DNA of 64,000 nt. It comes from a bacterium (GTDB lineage Bacteria; Patescibacteriota; Minisyncoccia; Phycocordibacterales; UBA6899). The notes under the pieces are model-generated. The model worked only from the letters and a program-made list of their open reading frames with translations, was not told the origin of the DNA and did not search any database. How positions within the stretch are numbered: position 1 is the stretch's first letter; the number at the start of each line of letters is the position of its first letter. Location: assembly GCA_043736515.1 (NCBI GenBank), contig JAYTCK010000013.1, forward strand, positions 12,214-76,213. The letters are read 5' to 3'. The position numbers and the translations under genes are program-made. Positions 3,335 through 60,171 of this stretch are shown in pieces.

Positions 3335-4141
3335 ATGGATCAGAAGGCAGAGAGTGGGGATGGGCACACGAAGAGTGACGAGTACTTCAGGGCACTGAAC
3401 GACCTCACGAGAAGATATCACCTCCCAGGAAATTTCGATCGCCATACTCGATGTTACGTTGAAATGGGAATGATCTCCTGGCCAGTCAACAGCTTCGACA
3501 TAACGCCAGTGGGATTCCCTGCTCGTTCGTTTAGGTTGAACATCTATCTCCTCCTGCGTAATCCCTTCTATTATGGTGAATTTGAATATCCGATGGGGAG
3601 TGGTAATTGGTATCCCGGCAAACAAACACCCATTATCACCAAGGAACTTTTCGATAGAGTGCAGTCATCTCTTCAAGATCACTACATTCCAAAAACGGAA
3701 AGCAGGGAGTTCGCCTTCACGAAGCTCATTAAATGCGGGTACTGCGAGAGTGGCATCACCGCCGACGAAAAATTCAAGAGACTCAAAGACGGAGGAACAA
3801 ATCGGCATGTCTATTATATGTGCACCAAGGGCAAGGGTGTGGAGTGCAAGAATGCGCCGATCAATGAGAAAGACCTAATCGAAGAATTGACTGGGCTACT
3901 CGACACCATCGACCTCGACGAGATCGGAATGAGGTCAAAGATCGAGGACGAAATGGCCCGCTATAATAAATTCCGTATCGGCGTGCTCGGACTGAAAACG
4001 AAAGAGCGCAATACCGATGTCGATGTGCGCAACTACGCAAAGTACCTGCTCAAAGATGGCACGCTAACCGAGAAGCGCGAGCTACTGGTATGCCTCAAGA
4101 GTCAGCTCATTCTGAAAGATCGAAAAGTATCACTGCAATAG
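3335..4141 (+). pseudogene. C-terminal fragment of a large serine recombinase. It has the recombinase-domain tail (NPFYYGEFEY), a zinc ribbon (KCGYCESGITADE ... YYMCTKGKGVECKN) and a coiled coil. The N-terminal resolvase catalytic domain is absent
   Basis: ORF-track protein of 268 aa. No catalytic-domain sequence upstream at 3100-3334, which holds only a short unrelated ORF. Adjacent to tRNA-Gly and a duplicated tRNA fragment. Confidence 0.55.
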
Positions 4142-4263: not shown

Positions 4264-4337
4264 TGGTGCGGGATGGGAGAATCGAACTCCCACCAGAAGT
4301 TTGGAAAACTCCTATTCTACCATTAAACTAATCCCGC
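4264..4337 (-). tRNA. tRNA-Gly(UCC), CCA encoded
   Basis: Reverse complement GCGGGATTAGTTTAATGGTAGAATAGGAGTTTTCCAAACTTCTGGTGGGAGTTCGATTCTCCCATCCCGCACCA. Acceptor GCGGGAT/ATCCCGC, anticodon loop TTTCCAA, T-arm GGGAG-TTCGATT-CTCCC. Confidence 0.85.
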
Positions 4338-4385
4338 ATTATTGTCTTTTGCCTCACGATTCTCGAATCGAACCTCTTACAGAGG

Positions 4386-4474
4386 CTGTATACCTTTTGG
4401 ATTTTTCAGAAAAAACCTCAAAAGGTCTTGCGCTCTGGCTCCCGCAAAGCCGGGTTCCCAAATGCCAGAGCTCA
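4386..4474 (+). repeat. tRNA-associated structured repeat, copy A (~90 nt). Followed at 4475-4523 by an exact duplicate of the first 49 nt of tRNA-Gly(UCC)
   Basis: CTGTATACCTTTTGGATTTTTCAGAAAAAACCTCAAAAGGTCTTGCGCTCTGGCTCCCGCAAAGCCGGGTTCCCAAATGCCAGAGCTCA aligns with copies at 26783-26870 and 30203-30289. Compensatory changes in two stems. Confidence 0.7.
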
Positions 4475-4620
4475 CCCACCAGAAGTTTGGAAAACTCCTA
4501 TTCTACCATTAAACTAATCCCGCTTGCTTATTGTGAGACTTTCGTATCCTAGCAAATTGACAACAAGGTGGCAACGGGGAAAAATGAGTAGAGATGCACT
4601 TTTTATAATAAGGATGGGTC

Positions 4621-15101: not shown

Positions 15102-16097
15102 TTAAAACTCCCAAAAAGAAAGAATCTGCTGCTTTAAGCCATGAGCATTCCCATGACTCAAGAGTCCAAGATAGGAATTGATTGTTTCTGCCTTGCCTTT
15201 TTTTGCTCTGATCCCCCGAAGCATTCTTTTCTTCGTCGCTGTTCGCAGTACACGATGATCGGGAAAATGCACCCACCCAAGAAAGTCCACGCCGGATGCG
15301 AATGCCCGAAGCGACACCTTGTTGGGATGAAGTTCCAATTTCAACATTTCCCCCAAAAACTCTTCAATGCGTGGTAGCAGAGTTTCAAGCAGACTTTTGT
15401 CTTCCGAAAAAAAGACAAAATCATCCGCATAACGAATATAATATTTTGCTTTGAGTGTATGCTTTACAAATTGATCAAATTCGTTCATGTAGATATTCAC
15501 CAAGAGTTGGGAGGTCAGATTACCGAGTGGAAGACCCTTCCCGGGTGCGGTGCTCTCAAAGCTTTCAATCACACGCAGAAGCAACCAAAGAATATCTTGG
15601 TTCGTAATATATTTTTTAAAAATACTCATCAATATCTCCTGATCAATCGAAGCAAAAAATTTGCGAATATCACACTTCAGCACCCAGCATGTCCGTGTGT
15701 GATTCTGAGAGACTTTGTATCCAAGAGCACGGAACCGATCAATTGCTCTGTGTGTCCCCTTTCCTTCACGACAGGAATACGAGTCTGCGATAAACATGCG
15801 ATCAAAGTAGGGATAGAGAATGCGGTAGATGGCATGATGTAGCAATCGGTCGCGCACTGAAGCTTTGTGGATATTGCGCGGTTTGGGGTCGGAGATATTG
15901 AAGGCGTAATATTCACCATGGCGATAGGTCTTCCCTTTCAGATCGGCATGCAAACAAAAAACGTGGTCTGACAATTGATACTGAAATTCCTGCACATCAC
16001 TCTTTTTTCTCTTTCCCTTTAAGAATCCTCTCCACGCCGCGAGCAAATTTTCCACAGAAATGATATCCTCATATGTATGAATGAACTGAATACCCAT
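15102..16097 (-). CDS. Diversity-generating retroelement (DGR) reverse transcriptase
   Basis: YADDFVFF catalytic box. The DGR-specific LGNLTSQ motif replaces the canonical QGxxxSP. N-terminus ENLLAAWRGFLKGKRKK. ORF track starts at TTG 16133. ATG 16097 is more likely. Confidence 0.85.
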   Translation of the reverse strand: MGIQFIHTYEDIISVENLLAAWRGFLKGKRKKSDVQEFQYQLSDHVFCLHADLKGKTYRHGEYYAFNISDPKPRNIHKASVRDRLLHHAIYRILYPYFDRMFIADSYSCREGKGTHRAIDRFRALGYKVSQNHTRTCWVLKCDIRKFFASIDQEILMSIFKKYITNQDILWLLLRVIESFESTAPGKGLPLGNLTSQLLVNIYMNEFDQFVKHTLKAKYYIRYADDFVFFSEDKSLLETLLPRIEEFLGEMLKLELHPNKVSLRAFASGVDFLGWVHFPDHRVLRTATKKRMLRGIRAKKGKAETINSYLGLLSHGNAHGLKQQILSFWEF

Positions 16098-16110
16098 ACA
16101 CCAAAGGTTA

Positions 16111-16120
16111 CCCCCCCCCC
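16111..16120. repeat. Homopolymeric C10/G10 tract between the divergent avd and RT starts
   Basis: ACCCCCCCCCCG on the + strand, 13 nt upstream of RT ATG 16097 on the minus strand. Confidence 0.8.
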
Positions 16121-16154
16121 GAGCATTTTGCAACCCAAACTCATCCCAGTTGTT

Positions 16155-16508
16155 TTGAAATTAAAAGACACTTACGGAGTGTGGCAAAACTATCTCAACC
16201 ACTTTCCCAAGGCCAATCGTTTTACCCTTGGATCAAAAATTGACGACGTATTTCTTGGAGCAATTGAGTATTGCTTTCTAGCAAGTTACGCATCCGCCGG
16301 TGACAAACTCATATTTATCGACAAAGCGATATCGCGGGTCGATCTCATAAAATTGCTTTTGCAACTCGCGTGGGATATTCAGGCGCTTGATACGAAAAAA
16401 TATGTTCACCTATCGGAATATTTAGCGGAGAGCGGAAAGATGCTGGGTGGATGGCGACGACAAATTGCAAACAAAACTCCCGAGACTATTGCTCGGGAGA
16501 AATTATAA
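16155..16508 (+). CDS. avd: Avd-like accessory variability determinant (four-helix-bundle DGR protein)
   Basis: About 117 aa from a TTG start (the ORF track extends to ATG 16077, which would overlap the RT start). C-terminal GKMLGGW motif typical of bAvd. Lies between RT and TR, but on the opposite strand to RT, TR and target. Confidence 0.55.
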   Translation: MKLKDTYGVWQNYLNHFPKANRFTLGSKIDDVFLGAIEYCFLASYASAGDKLIFIDKAISRVDLIKLLLQLAWDIQALDTKKYVHLSEYLAESGKMLGGWRRQIANKTPETIAREKL

Positions 16509-16513
16509 GAGTA

Positions 16514-16642
16514 GCGAACCCCAAGGAAACGGTAGTTGCCATTCCAGTCATCGTTCCGCCAGTTGAGGTTGAGGTTGCGCTTCGAGCCATTCCTGTACAG
16601 ATACGGTACGTTCCGATTGCCGTTCACCTTCGCGACCGAACC
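16514..16642 (-). repeat. DGR template repeat (TR), 129 bp
   Basis: Identical to VR 16990-17118 except at 15 positions. All 15 are T on the + strand (A on the coding/minus strand) in TR, against C/A/G in VR. Read in frame, the TR encodes Asn (AAC) at the variable positions. Confidence 0.85.
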
Positions 16643-16903
16643 CTGTGCAGTAGGTCATCCTCACCACCACCCCTTGAACTTTCACAGACGGCGCCATCCG
16701 CGAATACATTCTCGAGATTGTATCGTATTTGTGATCTTTTTATCACCAATCCTACTGCGCCAACTTTTTCAATTTTTTAACAATCTTATGCAACTCTCCC
16801 TGCAATCGTAACCGCAAGAATTCTCGGCATAAGCGTTGCGGACAAATTATTCACAGCCGTAACCGTGAATTTTTCATTTATCATGATTACTATATCAAAA
16901 AAA

Positions 16904-16926
16904 GTCCCGCACGAAACGTGCGGGAC
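16904..16926. promoter_or_regulatory. GC-rich hairpin downstream of VR (DGR hairpin/cruciform-like element)
   Basis: GTCCCGCAC-GAAAC-GTGCGGGAC, perfect 9-bp stem, about 50 nt 3' of the target-gene stop. Confidence 0.6.
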
Positions 16927-16974
16927 AAGGGTCCAAGGTACAAAGGGTCAAAGTGCGGACCCAAGGAGCGAGAG

Positions 16975-17571
16975 TCAGAGTGCGGAGTTGCGAACCCCAA
17001 GGAAACGGTAGTCGCCAAACCAGTCAGCGTCCCGCCAGCCGAGGCTGAGGTCGCGCTCCGAGCCATCCCTGCACAGATACGGTACGTCCCGACTGCCGTC
17101 CACCTTCGCGACCGAACCGAGAGCAACGATCGGGAACTTACGTTGCTCTTCGGGGTTTGCAGCGGCGGAGGCGAGCAAGTGTTCGATCTTCCCGGGTTGA
17201 TAGCCCTCGGCGATAATCAGGCGTTCGGCTTCGTCCGCTGAGACGACACGATCGAAGTGGAAAAGCTTGCGCTCGACCACCACGATACCAGAGCCGACGA
17301 CGGAAAAGCGTTTGGTGGTGATGTCGCTGTTGGTCCAGTCGTAGCGTCCGGCGGCGATCATTTGTTCGAGGGTGAGGGCGTAGTTGATGGCGAGGCGGGT
17401 GCCGCCACTCACTTCTTGTGGCGGATTGAGTCCCGCAAGGAACTTCTTCACATGCGTGAGGATATTCCCCTCCGAGAGACTCTTGACGTCGGCCGGAGTC
17501 CAGCCGTTACGCTCGAGTGCGTGATCAAGCTCCGCTGCTTGACGGGAAGACATAACAAACTTGTCGCTCAT
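16975..17571 (-). CDS. DGR target protein (198 aa) with a C-terminal variable repeat (VR 16990-17118)
   Basis: C-terminus ...DVPYLCRDGSERDLSLGWRDADWFGDYRFLGVRNSAL is encoded by the VR. Only 4 codons follow the VR before the stop. Confidence 0.8.
   Translation of the reverse strand: MSDKFVMSSRQAAELDHALERNGWTPADVKSLSEGNILTHVKKFLAGLNPPQEVSGGTRLAINYALTLEQMIAAGRYDWTNSDITTKRFSVVGSGIVVVERKLFHFDRVVSADEAERLIIAEGYQPGKIEHLLASAAANPEEQRKFPIVALGSVAKVDGSRDVPYLCRDGSERDLSLGWRDADWFGDYRFLGVRNSAL
16990..17118 (-). repeat. DGR variable repeat (VR)
   Basis: See the TR entry. Adenine-specific TR/VR mismatch pattern. Confidence 0.85.
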
Positions 17572-20746: not shown

Positions 20747-21258
20747 ATACTCGAATCGAATACAGGGCGACCGACATACGGGGGTATCGCAGCAACAGAT
20801 TCTCCGGAGATTGTGAGATTGTGCACGTCCACAACAAAGCGAGTGAGCGCTCCATTACTCCTTCCGTAGAACATTAGTGTTGTTGCGGTGAGCCACGTGA
20901 ATGAGACATCATCCGCCTCAACAGAAAACGCACCTTCAAGAACATATAAAGCACGTGGGCGGGCGACCTCAACATACACCGCAGGCATTCCAGAGTGAGT
21001 GGGAGCAACGTATGCTCTCTTTGTTCGCAAATGATTCGCATACTGTGCATCTATGGGCACGCTTGGCGCATTTGTAATTTCTCTTATCACAAGCACGCCA
21101 TCGATTGATTGTCCCACCGTGACACTTTGTGTTTCACGGTACATTGCTAATTTTGCTGTTTCAGGTGAAACACGAGAAAAAAAATCTCCGGATGTTTCAT
21201 ACGCGAATGCGAGCAGGGCAATAAGGAGGGCGATAATGGTGAACAGGTATCGTGGCAT
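20743..21258 (-). CDS. Hypothetical membrane-anchored or secreted protein
   Basis: N-terminal TM/signal segment LFTIIALLIALLAFA. No recognisable domain. Confidence 0.35.
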   Translation of the reverse strand: MPRYLFTIIALLIALLAFAYETSGDFFSRVSPETAKLAMYRETQSVTVGQSIDGVLVIREITNAPSVPIDAQYANHLRTKRAYVAPTHSGMPAVYVEVARPRALYVLEGAFSVEADDVSFTWLTATTLMFYGRSNGALTRFVVDVHNLTISGESVAAIPPYVGRPVFDSSI

Positions 21259-26712: not shown

Positions 26713-26782
26713 TATATTTACTACCTTGTGACACACGCTCATTTCGCACAAGCACTGAGTGTTAGCCGTCTCCGTACCGGAG

Positions 26783-26870
26783 CTGTACACCTTTTGGATT
26801 TTTCGGAAAAAACCTCAAAAGGTCTTGCGGTGTGGCTCCCATAGGAATGGGTTCCCTTTTGCCACACCTC
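26783..26870 (+). repeat. tRNA-associated structured repeat, copy B. Followed at 26871-26883 by a duplicate of the first 13 nt of tRNA-Pro. A D-loop fragment (TGTTAGCCGT) lies on the other side at 26760-26769
   Basis: CTGTACACCTTTTGGATTTTTCGGAAAAAACCTCAAAAGGTCTTGCGGTGTGGCTCCCATAGGAATGGGTTCCCTTTTGCCACACCTC. Confidence 0.7.
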
Positions 26871-26943
26871 ACACCACGCCCCGTTAAACAACAAAACGCT
26901 CATCTGAGCGTTTTGAGTATAGCAGATAGTGAAACAAAGACAA

Positions 26944-29100: not shown

Positions 29101-29605
29101 ACTAATCTAAAACCGTTCCACATGAAACATTCTCAAACACAGAACGGCATGGTACGGCAATTAAGCCGGCATACGCACTGTGCCAATCAGCAATGAAACT
29201 TCCTGGCAATGTTCCACGTGTAACATCTGATTGCCACGATCATGTCTCTTCTGAAATGCTTGGCTTTTTATGATTTATTAGACTTTTTTAAAAAATCCTT
29301 CGCGAAGCTATCCACTGTTTAAAAACCCGCGCTTTATCCTGCGAGGTTCAACCTCGTAGGATGTTATATAAAGCCTAATTCTTGAAGGAATACTGACTAT
29401 TAAAAGAGGTCTCATGTGTAGCTGCCATAAAAACTGAGCCGAAGCACTGAGGGTAGTGTCTGTGTATAAACATGTGGATAGTGTGCATAAAGGACACTCA
29501 AGGACACAATTTTGTCCTTTATAAACACTATACACAGGGTTATCCACAGTTGTGCGCACAGGAGGTGACAAAAAGCGCGAGTTGCTATTTAATTAGAAAA
29601 GAGCC

Positions 29606-30040: not shown

Positions 30041-30150
30041 TTTATTGGTCTTTCATTAGCAAAATTGGCGGGAGGAGGATCGTCGTTAATTTGCCATTTC
30101 AAATAAGATTCGCTAGTATATGGCGACACGCTGAGCATAAAAATGCGCTT

Positions 30151-30202
30151 GCGGGTATGGTTTAGTGGTAGAATACGTCCTTGCCAAGGATGAGACGGGA
30201 GT
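30151..30202 (+). pseudogene. Exact duplicate of the first 52 nt of tRNA-Gly(GCC), ending in the T-stem. Interrupted by repeat copy C
   Basis: GCGGGTATGGTTTAGTGGTAGAATACGTCCTTGCCAAGGATGAGACGGGAGT is identical to 30345-30396. Confidence 0.75.
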
Positions 30203-30289
30203 GAGGTGTGGCTACTGGGAACCCATTCTGATGGGGCCACACCGCAAGACCTTTTGAGGTTTTTTCTGAAAAATCCAAAAGGTGTACAG
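30203..30289 (-). repeat. tRNA-associated structured repeat, copy C. Inverse orientation on the + strand, but in the same orientation relative to its tRNA as copies A and B
   Basis: Reverse complement CTGTACACCTTTTGGATTTTTCAGAAAAAACCTCAAAAGGTCTTGCGGTGTGGCCCCATCAGAATGGGTTCCCAGTAGCCACACCTC. Confidence 0.7.
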
Positions 30290-30344
30290 GTCCTGTAGGG
30301 ACCGATTCTCCCTAAATGAGGAATCGCGGTACAATATAAAAAAT

Positions 30345-30415
30345 GCGGGTATGGTTTAGTGGTAGAATACGTCCTTGCCAAGGATGAGACGGGAGTTCGA
30401 TTCTCCCTACCCGCA
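30345..30415 (+). tRNA. tRNA-Gly(GCC), no encoded CCA
   Basis: GCGGGTATGGTTTAGTGGTAGAATACGTCCTTGCCAAGGATGAGACGGGAGTTCGATTCTCCCTACCCGCA. Anticodon loop TTGCCAA. A TACAAT -10-like box lies at 30329-30334. Confidence 0.85.
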
Positions 30416-30459
30416 CAAATACAAAAATACCGCCGCCGCAAGGCGGTATTTTGTATTTG
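30416..30459 (+). terminator. Long perfect hairpin immediately 3' of tRNA-Gly(GCC)
   Basis: CAAATACAAAAATACCGCC-GCCGCAA-GGCGGTATTTTGTATTTG. Confidence 0.6.
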
Positions 30460-36953: not shown

Positions 36954-37907
36954 TTACTTTCTTCGTTTGTCGTGAAACATTTTGTGAATTTCGCGTAACT
37001 TCGAATCAGTTACATGCGTGTATATTTGTGTAGTAGAAATATTGGCATGTCCGAGAAGCGCTTGTACCGACCGGAGATCAGCACCGTTTTCAAGGAGGTC
37101 GGTTGCAAAGCTGTGGCGAATAACATGCGGTGTGACTTTTTTAGAAATCCCTGCCTTGATAGCGTAGTGTTTCACAATACGTTCCACGGAGCGCGCGGTG
37201 ATACGAAGCGATGCATTCTCGTTTACGTTAGGGGGTTTACTACCGGCTTTGCCGCTCCGTCCTATGTGAATGAACAGAGCGTCATCCACATCTGTCCTTT
37301 TGTTTAGATAGTCCTTGAGGGCCTGCTTGGCTGTATCGGACAAAAAAACGACACGCACCTTTTCTCCTTTGCCACGTACGGAAAATTCATCGCGCGAAAG
37401 GTCCAAGTCGCGGGGAAGGCCGCAAAGTTCAGAAACGCGTAATCCTGTTGAAAATAGAAGCTCGAGCATTGCCTTATCCCGAAGCTCTGCAAGATTATTC
37501 CCTGCGGGAGATGCCAAGAGACGGCCTAAGTCTTGAGTACTCATGAGATCGAGCTCACGTTCTGATGTTTTTGCCAGTTCAATTCGATCGGGGGGCATGA
37601 CGTTTACGCCTTCTTTCGCGCAATACTTAAGAAACGCACGCAGTGCAATAAGGTAATAGTTTTGAGTACGTTTTTTGAGCGTTGTTCCCTGTATTCCTCG
37701 CTTCGACATGCTCGCCGGTTGTCGATTAAGCCATAAGCGATACTCGCGAATAACCTCATAGGTAATATCTTCGGGCTGCGAGAGCTTAGCGTAGGCGATA
37801 AAACGTGAAAGGTAGTGATCGTAATTCATCACTGTTTTTACGCTTCGTCCTTTTTCGATCTCTGTGTATTCAAGAAATCTACGTTTCCATTCCATAATAT
37901 CCATCAC
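36954..37907 (-). CDS. Tyrosine recombinase XerC/XerD
   Basis: R...HxxR...Y catalytic region HVIRHSFATDLLENGADLRSVQALLGHANISTTQIYTHV. Confidence 0.85.
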   Translation of the reverse strand: MMDIMEWKRRFLEYTEIEKGRSVKTVMNYDHYLSRFIAYAKLSQPEDITYEVIREYRLWLNRQPASMSKRGIQGTTLKKRTQNYYLIALRAFLKYCAKEGVNVMPPDRIELAKTSERELDLMSTQDLGRLLASPAGNNLAELRDKAMLELLFSTGLRVSELCGLPRDLDLSRDEFSVRGKGEKVRVVFLSDTAKQALKDYLNKRTDVDDALFIHIGRSGKAGSKPPNVNENASLRITARSVERIVKHYAIKAGISKKVTPHVIRHSFATDLLENGADLRSVQALLGHANISTTQIYTHVTDSKLREIHKMFHDKRRK

Positions 37908-38147: not shown

Positions 38148-38432
38148 ATGCCTATACCCACCTACACTGATAATCTTGCGAAGGAAGCAAAGAATTTGCT
38201 CAATTCGGCAAATATTACCGTTATTTCCGGAGGAAACATCTTTAGTGATGATCATGAGAGTGAGGACGTAGCAAGCATCAGCATTGAGTCGCTCAATAAA
38301 GAGCTGGCCAGCATTCAGACAAAAGCTGCTCCAGACGATGCAATTGAATTTCTTTCCGAAGAGTCACCCCACGACCTCCCGTTTGAACATTTCAAAAATA
38401 GCCTCAAGGAAGCAGCTCAAAAGACGGCCTAA
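38148..38432 (+). CDS. Small acidic hypothetical protein
   Basis: ORF only. Confidence 0.3.
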   Translation: MPIPTYTDNLAKEAKNLLNSANITVISGGNIFSDDHESEDVASISIESLNKELASIQTKAAPDDAIEFLSEESPHDLPFEHFKNSLKEAAQKTA

Positions 38433-38502
38433 GGTCGTTCCTCGGCTTTGAGAGGTGCGACCTTGAAGAAGCTGGCCGTTTTTTGCGGTACTGCTCGATA
38501 AG

Positions 38503-38562
38503 CGGCAGCCAACTTCTCCGAGGTACGACCTCCCAAGGCTGAGGTCGGACCTCAAGCTGCCT
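38503..38562. repeat. Palindromic REP-like repeat, family copy 1. A degenerate half copy precedes it at 38433-38462
   Basis: GCGGCAGCCAACTTCTCCGAGGTACGACCTCCCAAGGCTGAGGTCGGACCTCAAGCTGCC. Other copies at 59577-59630, 60111-60171 and in-CDS at 59441-59484. Confidence 0.8.
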
Positions 38563-38603
38563 AAAACTTGCGTACTTTAAATTTGTGTGCTAGGCTACAC
38601 CCC

Positions 38604-38904: not shown

Positions 38905-38940
38905 CAGACAACAATAATGCGCGTTTATCGCGCATTATTT
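38905..38940 (+). terminator. Intrinsic-terminator-like hairpin after rpsO
   Basis: AATAATGCGCG-TTTAT-CGCGCATTATT followed by a T-rich run. Confidence 0.6.
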
Positions 38941-39637: not shown

Positions 39638-39949
39638 AATTTACACAAAAGCTTTACTGTGTTAGCTTGGTGGAAGATGAGCCAAAGGAGTTTTCATGGA
39701 TTTCTGGATAGAAAGTGCATGGTTTCTGGCAACGGGATGCGCAATCGGTGCTGTCATCTTTGGAATAGCACTCCTTGCACAACGCAAGAAGTAACCGTGA
39801 CGCAATGCCCTCAACCGGGGGCTTTTGTTTTTGCTAATTTTTGATAGAGTGACAACATTAATGGTTGTGGCGCACAGATCATCTTGTTGAACCCAGCAGA
39901 ATAAGGAGTTCAATTCGAGAATCTGAGCGACACAAAGTAATTTTGTGTT

Positions 39950-58784: not shown

Positions 58785-59552
58785 ATGGCAACAGATTTTA
58801 ACAACCTTCCTCAAGCAATAAAAGACTTACTTCTCTCCGAGAAGCTTGTTGATGACGTTGAAGGTATCGCTAAGCATCATGGGCTACGCCCTGAGGAATA
58901 TGGCTTGCTCCTTCGTGCGACTACTCAACTCCTTGAGGGCAACATGCCCGCAACAGAATACATGGCTTCTCTTGTTGGTGAATTAGATCTCTCTCGTGAA
59001 AAAGCTGCGCTTGTGGCTCAGGACATTAATCAGAATATTTTTAACCCTGTCAAAGAAGAGCTGAAGCAAGTTCATGCAGTAAATGGAGCGAAAGATGGGG
59101 TTACACCACCACAACCTCTCCCTAAGGTCGCATCGAGTTCACACCTCTCCTCAAATCCTGTTGCTACAGCAACACCGGCACCTCTTCCCAAGCTTTCCGA
59201 AATTGCAGCCGCCTACACCGGCAAAACGGAAAAGCCAATGCCGCCCCAAAGTCCTCCGTTATCTGCCCCCTCCCAAAGTATTTTTGAGCAGAAAATGGGG
59301 GGGACATTTCGCATGAAAAGCGATACCACAAGTCACGCCGGGAGTGTGCCGCCACAGGGGGCAGCTAACTTCACCACAGGAGTACTTCCAAATTTCAGTA
59401 CTCGAGGACTCGATGAAATTTCTGGTCGCTCCGAGGTACGACCACCCAAAGCTGAGGTCGGACCCCAGTCTGCCCCCACATCGTCTAGTGCTGTTATGCC
59501 GAACCCCGGCACGTCATCCAAGGTTGACCCGTACCGAGAAGCGACAGGCTAA
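58785..59552 (+). CDS. Hypothetical Pro/Ser-rich protein. Its C-terminus is encoded by a REP-like repeat copy
   Basis: ORF only. The repeat at 59441-59484 encodes ...RSEVRPPKAEVGPQSA. Confidence 0.35.
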   Translation: MATDFNNLPQAIKDLLLSEKLVDDVEGIAKHHGLRPEEYGLLLRATTQLLEGNMPATEYMASLVGELDLSREKAALVAQDINQNIFNPVKEELKQVHAVNGAKDGVTPPQPLPKVASSSHLSSNPVATATPAPLPKLSEIAAAYTGKTEKPMPPQSPPLSAPSQSIFEQKMGGTFRMKSDTTSHAGSVPPQGAANFTTGVLPNFSTRGLDEISGRSEVRPPKAEVGPQSAPTSSSAVMPNPGTSSKVDPYREATG

Positions 59553-59576
59553 TAAAATGTGCAGAGAGTATCAGTT

Positions 59577-59630
59577 CAGCCAACTCCTTCGAGGTCCGAC
59601 CTTTCAAAGCCAAGGTCGGACCTCAGGCTG
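59577..59630. repeat. Palindromic REP-like repeat, family copy (variant)
   Basis: CAGCCAACTCCTTCGAGGTCCGACCTTTCAAAGCCAAGGTCGGACCTCAGGCTG. Confidence 0.75.
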
Positions 59631-59663
59631 ATCAGTCACTGCTAACAACCACTCCCTACTTAT

Positions 59664-60110: not shown

Positions 60111-60171
60111 GCGGCAGCCAGCTTCTCCGAGGTCCGACCTCCCAAAGCTGAGGTCGGACCTCGGGCTGCCG
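60111..60171. repeat. Palindromic REP-like repeat, family copy
   Basis: GCGGCAGCCAGCTTCTCCGAGGTCCGACCTCCCAAAGCTGAGGTCGGACCTCGGGCTGCCG. Confidence 0.8.

Follow-up and report, generated by a model that had tools for sequence, protein, structure and literature searches.

A family of small dispersed palindromic repeats is specific to Candidatus Lloydbacteria-like Patescibacteria (CPR), and we hold with moderate confidence that its copies are a non-autonomous palindromic DNA element, mobile in these organisms or mobile until recently. A 64,000-nt stretch of one such genome (the window in what follows) contains five copies. The case is built on copies at unrelated loci, on covariation across one long hairpin, and on sites that are filled in one genome and empty in a close relative.

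Copies in the window and in related genomes

The window is placed in the Patescibacteria, near Candidatus Lloydbacteria, by its proteins. Named homologues of its PrgI-like protein come from Lloydbacteria MAGs, and its PNPase shares a 90% cluster with the PNPase of MAG JAYUQG01. A repeat search yields four direct copies and one inverted copy (Table 1), in mixed orientation and lying between or inside genes. The core pattern CNAGGTNNNACCNNNCAANGCNNAGGNNNGACC, with 20 specified bases, matches five times in the window and never in 100 shuffles; the 13-mer GAGGTCGGACCTC, allowing up to two mismatches, occurs 17 times against 0.83 expected. A first-pass annotation had described this unit, and the sequences at 38502-38561, 59573-59632 and 60111-60171 match its description, including the near-palindromic arms (AAGGT-N3-ACCTT in each inner arm). 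It was also right that this is not CRISPR, as there is no array and the copies are spaced at 20913, 158 and 538 nt. Its tally of three copies and a half was too low: what it called a degenerate half copy at 38433-38462 is a complete minus-strand copy (81 bits with the covariance model), and the copy inside the 255-aa gene was missed.

Table 1. Copies of the palindromic element in the 64-kb window, with covariance-model scores and predicted folds
Coordinates	Strand	Copy	Covariance model	Fold
38424-38480	-	full, inverted copy, A.A-mismatch subtype	81.2 bits	-29.7 kcal/mol, z -4.6
38502-38561	+	full copy, fully paired subtype; reference copy of the direct repeats	74.8 bits	-28.9 kcal/mol, z -3.6
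59357-59477 (121 nt), core 59429-59467	+	long/nested copy inside the 255-aa gene	core 26.7 bits	whole-insertion DNA fold z -4.1
59573-59632	+	full copy; 255-aa gene (stop 59552) upstream, PrgI-like gene (start 59664) downstream	78.5 bits	-32.1 kcal/mol, z -5.9
60111-60171	+	full copy with the best pairing; PrgI-like gene (stop 60095) upstream, TraC-like gene (start 60238/60256) downstream	78.2 bits	-44.9 kcal/mol, z -6.9

Of the five copies, four form long hairpins, with energies of -29 to -45 kcal/mol and z from -3.6 to -6.9. The minus-strand copy, read on the plus strand, is a hairpin ACGGCC...GGCCGT followed by T7. The TAA stop (38430-38432) of a 94-aa ORF falls within it, and its outer stem encodes the last three residues of that ORF. 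It makes a head-to-head doublet with the next copy, which lies 71 nt past the 94-aa ORF and whose end abuts, from upstream, the rpsO promoter-like sequence TTGCGT..TGTGCTAGGCT. The long copy has termini GGGGGCAG/CTGCCCCC that form an 8-bp closing stem in the DNA fold, and its translation in open frame 2 reads GAANFTT...SEVRPPKAEVGPQSAP; its core folds poorly when taken alone (z -0.2). In the copy ahead of the PrgI-like gene, the changes in CCTTT/AAGG compensate each other. As for rpsO itself, a promoter-like block at 38566-38603 (ACTTGCG-N17-TGTGCTAGGCTAC), directly upstream of the gene, is conserved between the window and JAYUQG01 (locus L015, reverse strand). The intergenic DNA around this block is not conserved, and the element ends just upstream of it.

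A scan of one genome per species with the core pattern matched 21 loci, 18 of which are true copies, all in Lloydbacteria/Patescibacteria assemblies. Four Lloydbacteria-related assemblies contribute six (MHLS01), two (MHLM01), four (JAYSSO01) and four (JAYUQG01) copies, and the remaining ones come from one "Patescibacteria group" MAG and one MAG labelled Saccharibacteria. The other three loci, in Proteobacteria and Bacteroidota, look like chance matches. A metagenome scan gave 44 further loci, and covariance-model searches add more divergent copies at the same loci, often several per 8 kb. The viral contigs scanned contained no copies. After deduplication there are 54 copies, with 48 distinct sequences at E 1e-8 or better; these counts are not phylogenetically independent, many of the metagenome loci being near-duplicates from the same populations. 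The proposal of a dispersed, palindromic, REP-like family is thus borne out: at least five other Lloydbacteria/Patescibacteria assemblies, and many metagenome contigs besides, carry the element at unrelated loci. The first-pass annotation had allowed that the unit might be absent elsewhere and its copies a local segmental duplication; the genome and metagenome pattern scans found otherwise.

The window holds repeats of other kinds as well. A diversity-generating retroelement signature lies at 16077-17571, where a pair of 141-nt repeats (16509-16649 and 16985-17125) shares 87% identity and all mismatches but one have T in the first copy and C, A or G in the second, as read on the plus strand (the exception is A versus T). 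The mismatches are therefore adenine-specific on the minus strand, which points to a template/variable repeat pair. The variable member is at the C-terminal end of an ORF at 16975-17571 (minus strand), a bAvd-like ORF (PF22296) is at 16077-16508, and no reverse transcriptase ORF was seen near 16077-17571. Around 29300-29600 lies a probable replication origin: GC is at its lowest there (0.39), cumulative GC skew reaches its minimum, TTATCCACA DnaA-box-like motifs occur in a 37-nt inverted repeat (29460-29549), and gene orientation flips from mostly minus to mostly plus. Exact partial duplications of tRNA-Gly (4289-4337 = 4475-4523; 30150-30202 = 30344-30396), a 65-98-nt repeat common to three tRNA loci (4264-4532, 26771-26875, 30142-30416) and a serine-recombinase zinc-ribbon ORF at 3335-4141 suggest that tRNA genes here carry integrated elements or the scars of such elements.

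Hairpin architecture and covariation

Most copies are 56-72 nt long, with a maximum of 92. The outer stem is usually 6-12 bp but reaches 22 bp; it is alike within one genome and drifts with compensation. A conserved bulge of 8-9 nt, (C)AACTTCTC, interrupts the 5' side only, and the 3' side has one or two unpaired bases (A/G). The inner stem is 13 bp, with AAGGT/ACCTT ends invariant in 48 of 48 copies, and it closes a conserved loop, N-CAAAGC-N. Although each inner arm is nearly a palindrome in itself, the central triplets of the two arms complement each other (CTC/GAG, CAC/GTG, CTT/AAG, CCG/CGG), so it is the long hairpin that is maintained. Two subtypes can be told apart: in one, the inner stem carries a conserved A.A mismatch, sometimes with a C.A mismatch in addition, while the other, which includes four window copies, has a fully paired inner stem. 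Inner-stem sequence is kept across genomes whose local GC ranges from 41 to 65%.

Across the 48 distinct copies, standard pairs occupy 91.2% of cells, and double-sided changes are seen at 14 of 20 pairs (151 cells in all). These pairing and covariation values were reached in none of 500 shuffles, and sliding the partner column by 1-3 positions drops pairing to 23-47%. The seed alignment shows the same covariation picture as the 48-copy set, and in both the covariation extends over both helices. A loop-bulge pseudoknot was also considered and dropped, since inspection of the alignment turned up no correlated loop/bulge variants.

We take the constraint to act on the DNA palindrome, or on both strands equally, rather than to be a strand-specific RNA signature. 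One-sided (wobble) changes number only 7 against the 151 double-sided ones, G.U pairs show no strand difference (12 on the mRNA strand, 14 on the antisense strand), copies occur in both orientations, and some are translated. RNA-level consequences are nonetheless likely where copies are transcribed, and, judging from sequence, transcript effects such as termination or mRNA stabilization are plausible. The copy at 38424-38480 with its T7 looks like an intrinsic terminator for the 94-aa ORF. T-runs follow only this copy and one in another locus (L002 1889-1959, on the strand opposite the adjacent gene). Canonical hairpin-plus-T terminator-like sites are found elsewhere in the window at 38913-38939 (after rpsO) and 39807-39822.

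Gene context, in-frame copies and empty sites

The 54 copies were classified against simple longest-ORF gene calls. Between co-directional genes there are 19 antisense and 10 sense copies; two copies lie between convergent genes, four between divergent genes and four at contig edges. The remaining 15 overlap a called ORF, mostly through stop-codon overlaps or over-extended starts. Gene-end placement, noted in the first-pass annotation from the window copies, holds for about half of the family, with 26 of about 50 copies starting within 25 nt of a stop codon or overlapping it. Within apparent operons, several copies precede the next co-directional gene by 6-70 nt. Flanking genes differ by locus and include T4SS pilins, a HigB/HigA-like pair, an M16 peptidase, a deoxynucleoside kinase, a wHTH protein, the rpsO-NYN-pnp operon and a T4SS-like cluster.

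In several antisense copies the TAA of the gene is the element's own CTAA (38430-38432 in the window; 338-340 in L002). The two strands differ accordingly in coding potential: two or more frames are open on the model strand in 40 of 48 copies, and on the reverse strand 42 of 48 have one open frame at most. Orientation goes with subtype, the A.A copies being antisense 21 times and sense 9 times and the fully paired copies sense 8 times and antisense 2 times (Fisher p = 0.009, relatedness ignored). Most copies are singletons; the four head-to-head doublets (window 38424-38561, L006, L011 and L049) are all minus-then-plus. Nested or long variants are seen at L035 940-1052 and in the window's 255-aa gene. 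The spacer downstream of the L002 1889-1959 element (1960-2270) contains degenerate element fragments and two copies of a different hairpin (caaaagtcgcccacaaggcgacttttg), so that a single spacer gathers repeats of several types.

The strongest evidence for mobility, overlooked by the first-pass annotation, consists of a site that is filled in one genome and empty in a close relative, together with in-frame insertions. The JAYUQG01 locus L015 aligns with the window across rpsO-NYN-pnp. It carries a 58-nt element, AATGGAC...GTCCATT, 16 nt upstream of the pnp ATG, where the window site is empty and both flanks align. The inserted segment includes the outer stem, which is thus not target-derived. 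We had considered that a core might insert into pre-existing terminator stems, which would explain why outer stems vary; this was rejected because the empty pnp site of the window has no stem and the outer-stem bases are absent from it. The T4SS-like cluster gives further polymorphic sites. In the spacer before the PrgI-like gene a copy is present in the window and in L072 (whose protein is 79% identical) and missing from L073 and L074, while the spacer after that gene has a copy in the window only, with none in L070, L072, L073 or L074. These comparisons show the whole hairpin being gained or lost as a unit, without target-site duplication; the polymorphic sites fit either direction. Of 45 copies examined for target-site duplications, 29 lack any adjacent repeat and the others are no different from chance, and the longest shared flank word (4.16) compares with 3.91 +/- 0.28 in permuted controls.

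The copies inside genes are few (2 of about 48) and both are in frame. Protein and DNA alignments with three orthologues show about 40 extra in-frame codons (59357-59477) in the window's 255-aa gene. Downstream of the insertion the gene still encodes its conserved C-terminal motif, KVDPYRE. Compared with PDB 4r5f, an IscS-like cysteine desulfurase at L027 8294-9886 (minus strand) has 43 residues inserted immediately ahead of the conserved FHxDAxQ region. This insertion holds a well-preserved element copy (82 bits), whose in-frame translation is NFSEVAPFKAKERPQ.

The repeats also fragment metagenome assemblies. Short-read contigs of the same organism from independent assemblies, which carry the window's PrgI-like gene (L022-L025), end at about 59376, 59476, 60138 and 60157, inside copies, as expected for multi-copy sequence.

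Origin of the copies and relation to known repeats

For REPs with RAYT, and for IS200/IS605 ends with TnpA, an enzyme makes copies by recognizing hairpins in single-stranded or extruded DNA (PMC3116915, PMC5581495). The mobile element that we favor would work in a similar way. A trans-acting enzyme, by analogy a single-copy HUH/Y1 (RAYT-like) protein, would copy the element on recognizing its inner hairpin and bulge in single-stranded or cruciform DNA. Propagation would then be limited to hairpin-competent variants, and the covariation would arise because only these were propagated. The element persists where it is least harmful, after stop codons (sometimes supplying the stop), between co-directional genes and in frame in tolerant protein linkers. 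Its stable hairpins, once transcribed, would probably act secondarily as 3'-end barriers or terminators. Against this reading, copy number is modest (about 5 per 64 kb), and the subtype-biased orientation is not what simple random insertion predicts. The conservation of the inner stem over such a range of local GC could instead reflect a host function, for example a protein-binding site.

Searches for the mobilizing enzyme covered genome fragments. Neither the window nor about 0.6 Mb of related loci yielded a RAYT/IS200-like gene. A phmmer search with E. coli RayT, of limited reach as a single query, gave no match at E up to 10 among 4273 ORFs of at least 60 aa from the window and 75 loci. Pfam assigned no Y1_Tnp or other transposase among about 60 window ORFs, the only recombinase being a XerC/D-like integrase at 36954-37907. 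Clustering of proteins encoded within 2.5 kb of copies produced no recurrent family as a candidate, and no transposase gene of a parent insertion sequence was seen in the window or beside copies in these fragments. A 5' tetranucleotide of the REP type (GTAG-like) is absent as well, the 48-copy alignment having no conserved flank outside the outer stem. With no RAYT, target-site duplication or parent IS found, and with the bulged double palindrome conserved across an entire CPR class, we give some limited credence to a route that is not RAYT/IS200-like. An unrecognized, vertically inherited hairpin-recognizing enzyme or host pathway might write hairpins behind Patescibacteria genes, donating stop codons and in-frame peptides.

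Other explanations start from function rather than mobility. The copies might be "operon punctuation" for the host, serving as terminators, attenuators or 3'-exonuclease barriers in the manner of SPRITE or of the role proposed for REPs, with selection at the level of the locus and mobility only the route of arrival. The tight association with stop codons, the very stable folds and the T7 after one copy all suit such a role, as does the contrast between intergenic copies, which keep pairing, and the window's ORF-internal copy, whose core has lost foldability. Yet most copies lack a T-tract, the window has separate canonical terminators, several copies precede a co-directional gene within an apparent operon, four lie between divergent genes, and close relatives lack the element at the same sites with no obvious replacement. 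On balance we find punctuation rather improbable as the primary explanation. A strand-specific structured RNA, meaning a cis-regulatory element or a site for an RNA-binding protein or RNase (with P1, internal loop, P2 and conserved loop), would account for covariation in both helices, for the conservation of unpaired nucleotides (in the bulge, AACUUCUC, and in the loop, CAAAGC) and for the mostly sense placement of the fully paired subtype. We doubt this strongly, because the element occurs in both orientations to transcription, G.U pairs are nearly absent and have no mRNA-strand excess, some copies are in frame within ORFs, the neighboring genes are unrelated, and presence varies between close relatives. 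Rfam likewise offers no family match: only tRNAs pass gathering thresholds in the window, and with E up to 10 both repeat regions give, besides tRNAs, only sub-threshold generic (miRNA-type) hairpin matches.

Constraint on duplex DNA could take the form of an operator, in which two 13-bp palindromes (AAGGT-N3-ACCTT), with centers 21 bp or two helical turns apart, bind a dimeric or tetrameric nucleoid-associated or regulatory protein. Such a site would be indifferent to orientation, and its half-sites are indeed invariant at a fixed 21-bp spacing. Still, the N3 at the center of one palindrome covaries with that of the other instead of being self-symmetric, and the variable outer stem covaries too, neither of which duplex binding needs; the sites are moreover at gene 3' ends, not promoters. 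We consider an operator very unlikely. As for chance similarity or a segmental duplication confined to the window, three of the five copies do lie within 0.8 kb (59.36-60.17 kb), but no shuffle gives a core match, the flanks of the copies do not align, and the element stands at unrelated loci in many other genomes. That reading is already refuted, and its probability is negligible.

In function and structure the family is closest to REP/REPIN sequences, and its in-frame intragenic copies resemble Rickettsia palindromic elements (RPE; PMC10969869). REP/REPIN sequences with RAYT transposases are described from Enterobacteria and Pseudomonas (PMC3116915, PMC3337134, PMC5581495). Like them, the copies are short, imperfect palindromes scattered through extragenic DNA, for the most part at the 3' ends of genes and within operons; they lie in both orientations and, in four cases, form inverted doublets. 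They also share a conserved stem irregularity (the bulge), compensatory stem changes and a lack of target-site duplication, and they are lineage-specific and apparently vertically persistent. The differences are also considerable. REPs are about 20-40 nt, so the element is about twice as long; it has no GTAG-type tetranucleotide and no RAYT gene in the fragments searched, tens of copies per genome (by extrapolation) rather than hundreds, and some copies in frame inside ORFs. The host, too, is unlike those of REPs, being a CPR bacterium with a reduced genome (CPR genomes are typically roughly 1 Mb).

The likeness to RPE, reviewed in PMC10969869, is one of palindromic repeats in a reduced genome that are tolerated in frame in unrelated genes (here the T4SS-cluster 255-aa protein and the IscS-like desulfurase) and also occur between genes. 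RPEs differ in being about 100-150 bp and mostly within ORFs and in belonging to a different phylum; their sequences are presumably unrelated, and the likeness is one of analogy. MITEs such as Correia/NEMIS and BOX/RUP/SPRITE (PMC10969869) are also small non-autonomous hairpin repeats near genes that can nest, create terminators or alter C-termini. Their definition, however, requires terminal inverted repeats together with target-site duplications and a parent IS (PMC10969869), and here neither target-site duplication nor parent IS was found. Rho-independent terminators share the GC-rich hairpin right after a stop codon, with T7 following in one copy, but the element's sequence is conserved across unrelated loci and genomes, and its hairpin is long, bulged and mostly without a T-tract. 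We therefore file it as a new family of small dispersed palindromic repeats, outside REP-RAYT, on the grounds that it has no target-site duplication, no REP tetranucleotide and no demonstrated RAYT. Literature searches for REP-, MITE- or RPE-like palindromic repeats in Patescibacteria, Parcubacteria or Lloydbacteria found nothing relevant. The phenomenon is familiar from other bacteria, undescribed for CPR in the searchable literature, and conserved across a class-level lineage.

CPR/Patescibacteria have very small, gene-dense genomes in which mobile DNA is generally held to be scarce. Here an element rewrites C-termini and stop codons and adds peptides to enzymes such as IscS, and it is relevant to the assembly and annotation of MAGs. 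The mobilizing enzyme is a concrete search target, and the non-RAYT route, if true, would amount to a CPR-specific genome-shaping system. In either case the element offers a way into the question of how reduced genomes retain mobile DNA.
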